From Escherichia coli (GTDB taxonomy: Bacteria; Pseudomonadota; Gammaproteobacteria; Enterobacterales; Enterobacteriaceae): 64,000 bases of DNA. Position 1 is the stretch's first letter, and every line of letters starts with the position of its first letter. The position numbers were made by a program. Below are positions 60,801 through 63,800 of the stretch, piece by piece. The stretch lies in NCBI RefSeq assembly GCF_036507355.1, contig NZ_AP027877.1; one strand, written 5' to 3'.

Positions 60801-63800
60801 TACCTTCGTCTCAAATTTAGATGTTGGATAGGTATTATATAATGATATAATGGCATTGTGTACTCTTACTACCTGTATTCACCAGTAAGAGTAGTAATCA
60901 GATCAGTATGTCCGTACTAAAATCTGATACCAGTATATACCGACAACAGTGACCAGGAATAGCCCTGCCTGTATGGCATCCCTGTACGGTCTGCTATAGA
61001 CCGTAGGACCAAATACAGGTATATATTATGAAAACATATCAAGGTACTCATGGAGTACATATCCTCGAATATCAGAGTAAGATTAATAAATTATTATGTT
61101 ATTTGACTAACCGGTATCCTAGGTTAATTGCTGTACGTGTCGATCTCCACTATCCCAAAATAGTTGATAACGGTGACAATATCTGTTGCTTCCCTAACCT
61201 GGAACCTGGGGTGATATCCCGGATGCGTGAATCCCTCAGAGCTAAGCTGGAGGCTGACCGTACCCGTAAGGTGCGTGAGGATAAACGCATTTACCGTTGC
61301 CCTTTATTTATTATATGGGCGAAAGAGTATTCTGAATCAGGTAAATGCCACTATCACATTTGCCTGTTGTTCAACAAAGACGCTTACTACCACCTCGGGG
61401 ATTACGATCAGGACGATAACCTTAGAGGGATGATCACAGGAGCCTGGTACAGCGCCCTGAGACTGGAGAGAGACGATCACCCTGGTCTGGTCCATTTTCC
61501 TGAAAACTGTAAGTATGTGCTAGACACCAATAGTACTGACTTCCAGCAGAACTACCAGGCGCTGTTAACCCGACTGGACTACCTGACCAAAGTTGAAAGC
61601 AAAGTGTTTGGTGAAGGAGACCGTAACTTCGGCTGTAGCCAAATCGAACTGTAAGTCGGTAATGGCCTTCTCAGTGAGAAGGCCTTAGTTGTATTGTTTC
61701 AAAAAATTACTAAAATGCAGTTTCGTTACGCAATTTTCTATAGATTACTGATAGTCATCAGCAAGTCCGCTACTAAATAACGTTTCTGCATTTTCAGCGG
61801 TAGCAACAGCATCCTGCACATCCTGCCGTTTCAAATCTAACACTCGTAATTTACCCTTTACTTCGGCGACAGATTCGATTCGCCTGTAAGCATCAGAATG
61901 ATGTTCGGCATATAGCGCAAGTCCTTCCAGTTTGGGCAAAGCATCAGCCAGATGTAGGCTATGTGGATCTACCAGGTCCACAACCATTTTGCCATCCTGT
62001 TCGGCAAAGAACAGGAAATCGGGACGAACAATCTTGTACTGTTCAGCTTCAACATAAGCGATTCCCAGTGACGACTGCCCTGTGTACTGTGGATTACGAT
62101 ACCAGAAAGCAAATCCTTCACGTTTGGTTTCGATCTCAAAAACCTTGGTTTCCCAATGGTTCAACAGAGCCGGATAGTTCCCGCTTTCGTCACACAACAA
62201 ATGGTGTTTCCAGACTGGAAGGTCAGCTTCCTTTTCACCTTCACGCACCCTGGTCATTTCAAACTTGTTCGCCGGCCTGACCAGATCCACATCCTGCGGT
62301 TCGGTACTCATTTCGACGATTTGACGATAGGCCTCTTTACGCTCATCTTTCAACGACTTGATTTGCGGTGTGTACTCGGCCAGCCACGCCTTCGCCAGTC
62401 TATCGGCCTCGCCATCGAAGTAATCCTGCCCCTCCATCACCAGCCCCATGCCAGCAACGGTAACACGAGCCTCCATGATTGCTTCCAGATATTCCTCTGC
62501 ATCCTCTTCTCGATCCGCAACCTTATCGGCCAGATATTCGACATAGGTACGTGAAACATCCGGGCTGAAAATTCGGTGATGCTGCCAACTTACTGATTTA
62601 GTGTATGATGGTGTTTTTAAGGTGCTTGCGTGGCTTCCATTTCCATCAGATGTCCTTCCTGCTCCGCTACTGAAGGCGTGGTGCGTAACGGCAAAAGCAC
62701 TGCCGGACATCAGCGCTATCTCTGCTCTCATTGCCGTAAAACATGGCAACTGCAGTTCACTTACACCGCCTCTCAGCCCGGTACGCACCAGAAAATCATT
62801 GATATGGCCATGAATGGCGTCGGATGTCGCGCCAGTGCACGCATTATGGGCGTTGGCCTCAACACGATTTTCCGCCATTTAAAAAACTCAGGCCGCAGTC
62901 GGTAACCTCGCGCATACAGCCGGGCAGTGATGTGATTGTCTGCGCTGAAATGGACGAACATTGGGGCTACGTCGGTGCTAAATCACGTCAGCGCTGGCTG
63001 TTTTACGCGTATGACAGGCTCCGGAAGACGGTTGTGGCGCACGTCTTCGGTGAACGCACTCTGGCCACACTGGAGCGTCTTCTGAGCCTGCTGTCGGCCT
63101 TTGAGGTCGTGGTATGGGACGGATGGCTGGCCGCTGTATGAATCACGCCTGAAGGGAAAGCTGCACGTTATCAGCAAGCGTTACACTCAGCGCATTGAGC
63201 GACATAATCTGAGACAACATCTGGCAAGGCTGGGACGGAAGTCACTGTCGTTCTCAAAATCGGTGGAGCTGCATGACAAGGTCATCGGGCATTATCTGAA
63301 CATAAAACACTATCAGTAAGTTAGAGTCATTACCGGGCCAAATCGATAAATCGCTCGATGAAGCCTCACTCAGCCTGCGCGCCGGTTCCCTGCGTACCAT
63401 TACGCACATCCTGCTGCCGCTGCTGCGCCCGGCGATCCTCTCGGCGCTGATTTACAGCTTTGTGCGCGCCATTACCACCGTCAGCGCCATTGTGTTCCTC
63501 GTCACGCCGGATACCCGCGTAGCGACGGCTTACATCCTCAACCGCGTGGAAGATGGCGAATACGGTGTAGCGATTGCCTACGGTTCCATTCTGATCGTGG
63601 TGATGCTGGCGATTATTTTCATCTTTGACTGGCTGATCGGTGAATCACGTACCTCCCGTTCAAAAGCCAAAAACCAGGCGTAATGGAGCGCACTATGACT
63701 CAGAAAAATTTCGTTGAACTGCGCAACGTCACTAAACGATTTGGCAGTAATACGGTAATCGACAATATCAACCTCACCATCCCGCAGGGGCAAATGGTGA

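Follow-up and report, generated by a model that had tools for sequence, protein, structure and literature searches.

Whether an insertion sequence that occupies a familiar chromosomal site can still move by itself, and whether it is the copy that its position suggests, are questions raised by an IS1 element near the end of a 64,000-nucleotide stretch of Escherichia coli DNA (contig NZ_AP027877.1 of assembly GCF_036507355.1; here, the window). We think it very probable that the window copy is a non-autonomous IS1 with a history of recombination between IS1 copies, the two parts being taken together.

RESULTS

An IS1 element with an intact insA. The window element is an IS1-family insertion sequence in which the ends, insA, the A6C signal and transposase homology are all present (Table 1). 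The terminal inverted repeats of the family are about 23 bp long and imperfect (GGTGATGCTGCCAACTTACTGAT ... ATCAGTAAGTTGGAGTCATTACC), and both were found. The left repeat is identical to that of K-12 IS1A and IS1B, with G at element position 4, and the single substitution in the right repeat recurs, among the copies compared, in that of AR_0369. A sigma-70-like consensus match sits where the IS1 promoter is expected. The insA product contains a zinc ribbon and a helix-turn-helix (Pfam Zn_ribbon_InsA, 1.1e-19; HTH_Tnp_IS1, 5.5e-27) and has F81, like that of IS1B, IS1C and IS1D. InsA represses the IS1 promoter and also acts as an inhibitor (PMC12428005). The A6C motif, which directs the -1 frameshift at the insA/insB' overlap (PMC12428005), lies within TTTAAAAAAC at 62878-62887, and its element position, 305, is that of every reference copy. 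An exact lookup of the InsA protein matched four loci, but these were uninformative, as their DNA consisted of unrelated mosaics that encode the same InsA by chance. The window holds one other IS1 fragment besides this element.

Table 1. Features of the IS1 element and its neighbors, in window coordinates
Feature	Position	Strand	Basis or remark
yagJ, CP4-6 prophage remnant, left neighbor	61745..62476	-	junction identical to K-12 NCM3722
IS1 element, 760 bp	62575..63334	+	inverted-repeat search; boundaries and length; alignments to K-12, HS and CFT073 copies
IRL, GGTGATGCTGCCAACTTACTGAT	62575..62597	+	exact match, chance expectation 0
IS1B-type patch, left end, element positions 4 and 40	62578..62614	+	
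Putative sigma-70-like promoter, CTGCCA-16-TATGAT, within and beside IRL	62582..62609	+	consensus match only
insA, intact, 91 aa, GTG start	62630..62905	+	ORF scan, Pfam
IS1B-type patch, element positions 293-345, includes TTCCGCCAT	62867..62919	+	
A6C programmed -1 frameshift motif AAAAAAC, intact	62881..62887	+	
insB', N-terminal part, -1 frame	62887..63141	+	within ORF 62824-63141; ends at TGA 63139-63141
IS1A/B-type patch, element positions 445-452	63019..63026	+	
2-bp deletion, AT of TGG-AT-GAC (TGGATGAC)	between 63117 and 63118	+	alignment
insB', C-terminal part, out of frame	63119..63319	+	within ORF 63101-63319; TTG start
6-bp deletion, in frame	between 63205 and 63206	+	alignment; common to intact 762-bp copies
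IRR	63312..63334	+	one substitution vs IS1-family IRR, G>A at 63323
afuB' remnant, 349 bp	63335..63683	+	junction identical to K-12 IS1B/afuB'

A 2-bp deletion truncates InsAB'. The InsB-homologous sequence is spread over two ORFs in different frames, and the Pfam domain DDE_Tnp_IS1 is split accordingly, the first piece covering positions 1-67 and the second positions 62-131 of a 131-position profile (8e-31 and 3.8e-33). The NCBIfam model transpos_IS1 was matched at positions 1-160 of 199 by the N-terminal part joined to the insA product, and the conceptually repaired protein scored 232 bits against NF033558. At 760 bp, the element is 8 bp short of K-12 IS1A, IS1B and IS1F, each of which is 768 bp, and alignment resolved the shortfall into two separate events of 2 bp and 6 bp. 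The 6-bp deletion is one unit of an AA(C/T)CTG-AATCTG tandem and removes Asn-Leu just after E191. E. coli HS has the same 6-bp in-frame deletion in an intact 762-bp isoform annotated "programmed frameshift" (NC_009800.1, 2156076-2156837; WP_225089559), but that copy retains TGGATGAC and encodes a 230-aa InsAB', whereas the window copy has lost the AT. With a normal A6C -1 shift, InsAB' of the window copy stops at residue 170, compared to 230-232 for intact proteins, at a TGA eight codons past the 2-bp deletion. The disabling lesion is the 2-bp deletion only; the 6-bp loss is an isoform trait.

Truncation falls before the catalytic glutamate because the 2-bp deletion shifts the frame. D166 and E191, which we take to be catalytic residues of InsAB', are encoded at 63122-63124 (MTDGW) and 63197-63199 (RIERH), and the 24 residues between them agree with the D-(24)-E spacing that Ohta et al. 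(2002, J Bacteriol 184:6146) reportedly found for the IS1 transposase. The E191 codon is out of frame in the window copy and is thus missing from the 170-aa product. The window copy is therefore predicted to be incapable of autonomous transposition. A preliminary description of the sequence had proposed as much, from an IS1 at these boundaries with an intact insA and an insB divided between two frames, and each of these points held upon analysis, the C-terminal half of DDE_Tnp_IS1 being the part lost. Its estimate that the element is about 8 bp shorter than canonical IS1 was correct in length, but only 2 of the 8 bp belong to the lesion. The alignment to IS1 references that it called for gave the 762-bp HS copy, which lacks the 2-bp deletion, as the nearest intact isoform, and the window copy is not a known functional isoform.

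The deletion is an allele that occurs at many loci. An 80-bp probe across the 2-bp deletion matched exactly in 135 complete E. coli records out of 20,395, CFT073 and ATCC 8739 among them, on several mosaic backgrounds and at at least six loci. These exact matches establish the deletion as a real allele rather than a sequencing error, and the preliminary reading of a genuine mutation away from any homopolymer is upheld. Long-read assemblies err mostly through indels, and one might suppose, though nothing specific points to it here, that sequencing or assembly introduced the 2-bp gap into what is actually an intact 762-bp IS1. The gap lies outside a homopolymer, however, and error would have had to produce the identical 80 bp in 135 independently sequenced genomes of differing mosaic background, and thus we give the idea almost no credence and consider it effectively refuted. 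Deletion-bearing copies are annotated by PGAP either as "frameshifted" pseudogenes or as three separate coding sequences, and the deletion is present in other strains at the fec locus, the site of K-12 IS1F. We conclude that the broken allele already appears in the annotation of many E. coli genomes, is of a known kind and represents ordinary biology.

One of the closest described counterparts is in CFT073 (NC_004431.1, 4283351-4284110), which has the same 760-bp length, the same 2-bp and 6-bp deletions, and three coding sequences (WP_001349330, WP_001405550 and WP_001385545) in the same layout and offsets as the three ORFs of the window copy. That copy lies at another locus, a decarboxylase/antiporter island beside ykgR, and unlike the window copy it has IS1F-type ends (GGTAATG...) and no IS1B-type patches. 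The two differ by 15 substitutions, and at 12 of these the window copy has the IS1B-type base. Across 5,426 complete E. coli genomes, the best full-length match to the window element was 98.0%, and full-length and flank searches of the same genomes found no 2-bp-deletion allele at afuB. An exact 39-mer across the deletion had no match in 100,044 species-representative genomes, and looking up the 105-aa product of the N-terminal InsB ORF for identical proteins likewise returned nothing.

The site is that of K-12 IS1B/IS1C. The element separates yagJ from an afuB' remnant, the C-terminal part of an ABC-transporter permease that IS1 interrupts and that is 349 bp long in K-12 too. Site, orientation and both flanks are those of K-12 IS1B/IS1C, present in NCM3722 as a single IS1 at yagJ|afuB': the 12 bp on either side match NCM3722 exactly, and the right flank also matches that of MG1655 IS1B base for base. 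The flanks (...GAAAATTC and GGGCCAAAT...) contain no 8- or 9-bp target-site duplication. The intact IS1 at the same NCM3722 site likewise lacks one, and thus the missing duplication reflects an old IS1-associated rearrangement and is no argument against membership in IS1.

The sequence is that of an IS1F-like mosaic. Identity to NCM3722 is 99.67% and 99.70% in the flanks but 92.24% in the IS1 itself, with 59 mismatches and 8 gap positions to the IS1B-type copy at that site. For comparison, IS1B has nine mismatches to consensus IS1 (PMC12428005). The window copy is 98.0% identical to the CFT073 copy, 98.0% to HS and 97.6% to K-12 IS1F but 92.2% to IS1B and 91.6% to IS1A. With at least 97% identity to IS1F, HS or CFT073 copies as the threshold, and about 92% expected for IS1A/B, alignment assigns it to the IS1F-like isoform clade, which has 760-, 762-, 766- and 768-bp forms. 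Thus, it is K-12 IS1B/IS1C by position and not by sequence; K-12 IS1B, moreover, is 768 bp with a contiguous insB', whereas the window copy is 760 bp with a split one. IS1F itself (768 bp, beside fecI; insB7 pseudogene b4576) belongs to the same clade and has an intact insA. Its lesion lies no more than 3 bp from that of the window copy but is a TGG>TAG change at W163 where the window copy has the 2-bp deletion, and IS1F retains the two AATCTG units of which the window copy has lost one.

Within the IS1F-like backbone are short patches of another type. The left-end bases and a patch around TTCCGCCAT (F81) are common to the window copy and K-12 IS1B/IS1C; TTCCGCCAT is an IS1B/C signature that is missing from IS1A and from other IS1F-like copies. 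Twelve of 69 informative sites were B-type and fell into 8 runs compared to 20.8 expected, and none of 100,000 shuffles gave 8 runs or fewer. Like the anatomy, the truncation and the distribution of the allele, the mosaicism and the step in divergence where the IS begins and ends are direct observations, and patches of this kind on an IS1F-like backbone suggest that IS1 copies have recombined or undergone gene conversion with one another. Among the other IS1 copies that adjoin afuB', the B/F mosaic takes different forms, and CFSAN064036 carries a 760-bp deletion-bearing copy 8 bp upstream of an intact IS1B at afuB', a layout in which a donor copy possibly adjoins the IS1 at that junction.

DISCUSSION

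The 2-bp deletion shifts the insB' frame just ahead of the second catalytic aspartate, and the only InsAB' that the window copy can encode is a 170-residue stub with a zinc ribbon, a helix-turn-helix and about half of the DDE domain but no catalytic glutamate. InsA, a repressor and inhibitor that binds the IS1 ends, could presumably still be produced. Such a copy would not be able to catalyze its own transposition, and any movement would depend on InsAB' provided in trans by an intact IS1 at another place in the cell.

Perhaps the split gene is instead a functional isoform, either through a +1 shift after 63118 and before the TGA at 63139 that restores InsB or through assembly of the two InsB pieces into an active enzyme. 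About 40 nt are common to the two ORFs, the downstream piece is open in all copies examined, and deletion-bearing copies with target duplications exist. A young lesion would equally be expected to leave the downstream frame open, however, and, by reading, the overlap (GTA TGG GAC GGA TGG CTG GCC GCT GTA TGA) contains no slippery or shift-prone motif. Moreover, TTG is the sole start of the downstream ORF and no Shine-Dalgarno sequence is evident for it, the split falls in the middle of the Pfam DDE domain, PGAP calls such copies frameshifted pseudogenes, and K-12 IS1F, whose lesion is a stop in the neighboring codon, does not move by itself (PMC12428005). We regard a functional isoform as very improbable and retain the non-autonomous reading.

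Loss of autonomy need not mean loss of movement. The preliminary description called the insertion "fixed," but this is not supported, as the ends are intact and the allele occurs at at least six loci, two of them with perfect target duplications: 9 bp at ycgY in X14-3 and 8 bp at yhhY/tssD in NT1F25. The NT1F25 copy and an H2 island copy have private SNPs in common. The X14-3 ycgY insertion was sought elsewhere in intact form and was not found, being unique to X14-3, while ycgY in other strains carries various other IS1 insertions. The duplications in these genomes could also have arisen if an intact copy inserted and was then converted. K-12 IS1B is essentially immobile by itself (PMC12428005); IS1B, IS1C, IS1D and IS1F, all immobile alone, are mobilized by overexpressed InsAB' (PMC12903888, PMC12428005); and among the immobile K-12 copies it is IS1F that is mobilized most in trans (PMC12903888). 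By analogy, the window copy may be mobilized in trans as well.

As to how an IS1F-like sequence came to lie at the IS1B/IS1C site, we envisage that an IS1F-like copy displaced most of the interior of the resident IS1 by recombination or gene conversion; the donor would already have carried the 2-bp deletion, and short IS1B-type patches would have been left behind. In the literature, we found no account of IS1-to-IS1 gene conversion, only general E. coli evidence, from rRNA operons and prophages (PMC4444293). Alternatively, a ready-made mosaic 760-bp element inserted independently, or was swapped in after horizontal transfer through two crossovers in the flanking DNA, and no resident IS1B-type copy was converted. 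Many B/F mosaics circulate, some on plasmids, and the IS1-afuB'-afuC-mmuMP block is also found on plasmids. Independent insertion is unlikely, however, because both junctions match K-12 to the base, in the same orientation and with no target duplication. Identity to K-12, moreover, stays at 99.7% in the flanks as far as the boundaries of the IS, and the resident type is seen in the left end of the element and in its IS1B/C-specific TTCCGCCAT patch. Arrival without conversion thus seems unlikely to us, and replacement of the resident interior is the account we prefer. With so many kinds of mosaic in circulation, the window mosaic may nonetheless have arisen elsewhere before it replaced the resident copy.

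The copy might be retained by selection as a repressor-only IS1 in which InsA, perhaps aided by a truncated InsAB' that binds DNA, damps IS1 activity in the genome. The insA gene, the promoter region and the A6C motif are intact in 15 of 15 deletion-bearing copies examined, the allele is widespread, and repression and inhibition by InsA are established (PMC12428005). An intact 276-nt ORF is nevertheless expected by chance in young copies, 135 of 20,395 records is a modest frequency, and many of the 135 copies lie at just two island-linked loci and were probably inherited as a block. We therefore doubt strongly that selection for repression maintains the copy. In a broader form, IS1 with the 2-bp deletion would be a successful repressor-only lineage that spreads in E. 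coli via intact IS1 transposase and gene conversion, overwrites intact copies (here, IS1B at afuB) and lowers IS1 activity, and this we consider improbable. Internally deleted, repressor-making P elements in Drosophila would be a parallel.

The window copy belongs among IS1 pseudogenes or non-autonomous elements and not among active ISs, a correction with little weight beyond annotation. The locus also indicates that orthology of a site does not guarantee orthology of the IS sequence found there, with flanks 99.7% but an element 92% identical to K-12, and that gap makes the naive use of IS copies for dating insertions or typing strains unsafe. A disabling lesion can pass between IS copies by recombination as well as by descent.

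RESULTS

The preliminary description of the IS1 copy at the yagJ/afuB' junction, as an element with an intact insA and an insB spread over two frames, was right, coordinates included (see the table). The A6C motif, at which a -1 frameshift fuses insA to insB' to produce the transposase InsAB', lies at the same element position (the coordinate within IS1) as in every reference copy. The Pfam domain DDE_Tnp_IS1 is split across both InsB ORFs, at profile positions 1-67 and 62-131 of 131.

Features of the IS1 copy and of its surroundings in the window
Feature	Coordinates	Strand	Remarks
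IS1 element	62575-63334	+	760 bp
Left inverted repeat (IRL)	62575-62597		GGTGATGCTGCCAACTTACTGAT; exact match, chance expectation 0
Right inverted repeat (IRR)	right end at 63334
Promoter-like site	within and beside IRL		CTGCCA-16-TATGAT
insA	62630-62905		GTG start; intact 91-codon ORF; Zn-ribbon and HTH domains of InsA
A6C programmed -1 frameshift motif	62881-62887
InsB-homologous ORFs	62824-63141 and 63101-63319		different frames
2-bp deletion	between 63117 and 63118		AT of TGG-AT-GAC
6-bp deletion	between 63205 and 63206		one unit of tandem AA(C/T)CTG-AATCTG; in frame, Asn-Leu lost
Second IS1 fragment	57286-57635	-	canonical IS1A type
IRL of second IS1	57613-57635		exact
insA of second IS1	57305-57580		intact
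IS3-family transposase fragment	56714-57256	-	rve domains
Truncated fim-type tyrosine recombinase	56313-56717	+	abuts IS3-family fragment
intF (CP4-6 integrase)	57646-58272	+	N-terminal part missing

Each of the K-12 copies IS1A, IS1B, and IS1F is 768 bp long, against 760 bp here. Thus, the earlier claim that the element is about 8 bp shorter than canonical holds, but alignment splits the shortfall into two deletions, and six of the eight bases are irrelevant to the lesion. The same 6-bp deletion is found in 762-bp copies such as one in E. coli HS, for which RefSeq gives one "programmed frameshift" transposase and whose translation is an uninterrupted 230-amino-acid InsAB'. The 6-bp deletion is therefore an isoform trait and does no damage. 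We conclude that the lesion is the 2-bp deletion. If translation makes the usual -1 shift at A6C, InsAB' ends at residue 170 and covers the NCBIfam IS1 transposase model only up to position 160 of 199. The MTDGW and RIERH motifs set D166 and E191 (IS1A numbering) 24 residues apart, an assignment that agrees with the D-(24)-E spacing reportedly found in IS1 by Ohta et al. (2002, J Bacteriol 184:6146; cited in PMC12428005). The frameshift falls two codons ahead of D166; D-G-W is still read in the shifted frame, by accident of the local repeat, and the E191 codon (63197-63199) and all codons downstream are out of frame. A G>T substitution at 62961 (element position 387), unique to this copy among those compared, changes Gln to His in the DEQWGY motif beside the first catalytic aspartate, and a G>A substitution in the IRR at 63323 (element position 749) is shared, among the compared copies, only with the mosaic copy of AR_0369.

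The deletion was initially read as a genuine mutation, not being at a homopolymer, and both parts stand: the site has no homopolymer, and in the complete-genome E. coli collection 135 records contain an exact match to an 80-bp probe centered on it. Because 135 independently assembled genomes share the allele, a sequencing error is excluded. In principle, transposase activity might be restored by a further recoding event or by assembly of an enzyme from two pieces, but the 40-nucleotide ORF overlap has no shift-prone motif, TTG is the only start codon available to the downstream InsB ORF, and the DDE domain is cut mid-fold, which makes both very unlikely. PGAP either labels deletion-bearing copies "IS1 family transposase, frameshifted" or gives three separate coding sequences (CFT073, for example), at offsets equal to those of the three ORFs here. 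The nearest full-length matches are likewise 760-bp deletion-bearing copies, at 98.0% identity. The exact sequence across the deletion was not found in 100,044 species-representative genomes, and no genome of the complete E. coli collection carried the allele at the yagJ/afuB' locus.

Fifteen copies with the 2-bp deletion were examined for their loci and fell into six left-flank contexts. Copies adjoin fecI/ykiE, the K-12 IS1F site, in 94-3024, RM12761, 2014C-4135, 2013C-4991, and ATCC 8739, and lie at the end of an island with an Orn/Lys/Arg decarboxylase and an antiporter in CFT073, 300709, M217, H2, and CFSAN064036. Others are within ycgY (X14-3), between yhhY and tssD (NT1F25), beside an L-lactate permease gene (AR_0369), and at yagJ/afuB' (the window). 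The deletion occurs in 760-bp versions with the 6-bp deletion, in 766-bp versions without it, and in several mosaic backgrounds. In every case, however, IS1F-type sequence with a linked A at element position 571 surrounds it, which argues for a single origin followed by spread rather than for recurrence. At the fecI/ykiE junction, we note that IS1F of K-12 MG1655 is knocked out by TGG>TAG (W163) and that in other strains the 2-bp deletion starts at the very next base. One orthologous copy thus has two different knockouts within 3 bp, which may reflect chance, a mutational hotspot, or successive events.

The right flank does not differ from the IS1B/afuB' junction of MG1655, and the two share an afuB' remnant of 349 bp. 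NCM3722, a K-12 strain, has a single 768-bp IS1B-type copy between the same flanks (...GGCTGAAAATTC, IS1, GGGCCAAATCGA...), and neither of the two insertions has a target duplication. Identity to NCM3722 is 99.67% over 4.9 kb to the left and 99.70% over 666 bp to the right, against 92.24% in IS1 itself, and the jump in divergence coincides exactly with the IS1 ends. Among 69 informative sites, 57 are IS1F type and 12 are IS1B type, the latter at element positions 4, 40, 178, 293-345 (a patch containing the IS1B/C signature TTCCGCCAT), and 445-452. The sites form 8 runs against 20.8 expected, and 8 or fewer were seen in 0 of 100,000 shuffles. Other genomes have different IS1B/IS1F mosaics at the afuB' junction; in pS65EC, an IS1B-type 5' half joins a 3' half of the K-12 IS1F type, including its TAG stop. 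IS1B-backbone copies with IS1F-type patches also occur at other sites, often on plasmids. It is unlikely that another IS1 inserted independently at this very base pair, as the junctions are identical to those of K-12 and the element ends are of the resident type. The history that fits best is one in which recombination or gene conversion replaced most of the resident IS1 at this old junction with IS1F-like sequence that was already frameshifted; we infer the direction and number of the conversion steps. In CFSAN064036, a frameshifted 760-bp IS1 lies in direct tandem 8 bp (GTATTGAC) upstream of an intact IS1B-type copy, immediately upstream of afuB', and therefore donor and recipient can be immediate neighbors. 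Intragenomic gene conversion between repeats of E. coli K-12 has been described for rRNA operons and prophages, not for IS1 (PMC4444293). The copy is IS1B by position and mostly IS1F-like by sequence.

The second IS1 runs for about 350 bp before the IS3-family fragment truncates it. The two IS1s are inverted, with IRLs inward, around the CP4-6 prophage remnant intF'-yagN-yagM-yagL-yagK-yagJ. The intF ORF starts 11 bp from the IRL of the second IS1 and therefore was truncated by IS1 insertion, whereas NCM3722 has the full 1,401-nucleotide gene. To the left of the yagJ/afuB' IS1, 0H26 and relatives have a 395-amino-acid ORF in a region 435 bp longer than that here, whereas 61745-62574 and K-12 have a shorter version annotated yagJ (243 amino acids), which fits a deletion next to IS1 that this strain and K-12 have in common. 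Finally, the IS1-afuB'-afuC(fbpC)-mmuM-mmuP block also occurs on E. coli plasmids of 64 to 147 kb with the chromosomal IS1/afuB' junction, and therefore the segment moves between replicons; in pS65EC it adjoins TIR-domain and DUF4238 genes.

DISCUSSION

Whether a broken IS1 is also a fixed one is a separate matter. With InsAB' ending at residue 170 and E191 out of frame, the proposal that this copy is non-autonomous is well supported. That it is a fixed insertion does not follow: the broken allele is at several loci, two with target duplications, and K-12 copies that are immobile can be mobilized in trans. The X14-3 copy in ycgY is a simple insertion with a perfect 9-bp target duplication (ATGAAAGTG), unique among 5,426 genomes, and the NT1F25 copy, which has private substitutions in common with the copy in the H2 island, is another, with a perfect 8-bp duplication (CAAAATCG). 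Both fit an already-broken element moved by the transposase of other IS1 copies, but an intact copy could instead have inserted and later been converted to the broken allele. Many unrelated strains have IS1A-, IS1B-, and IS1F-like insertions in ycgY, apparently at differing positions or orientations, which suggests that ycgY is a local IS1 hotspot. Of the K-12 copies, IS1A and IS1E alone are mobile unaided. IS1B, IS1C, IS1D, and IS1F are essentially immobile, but overproduced InsAB' mobilizes these four in trans, IS1F most often, at 44% of 48 sequenced events (PMC12428005; PMC12903888).

The IRL promoter would drive production of InsA, which represses the IS1 promoter and competes for IS1 ends (PMC12428005), and, at the low natural frameshift rate, of a 170-residue InsAB' stub that would keep the DNA-binding domains and lose the catalytic glutamate. 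Lacking that glutamate, the copy would be unable to transpose unaided. It may still recombine with homologous IS1 copies and, in principle, be acted on by a transposase provided in trans. Selection might conceivably keep a repressor-only IS1, but nothing observed requires it. We conclude that the initial reading was essentially right and that the copy is a degenerate IS1 whose kind and allele public annotation already contains and flags. It is mildly instructive in that six of its eight missing bases do not matter, the broken allele has spread to several loci, and position and sequence differ in type.
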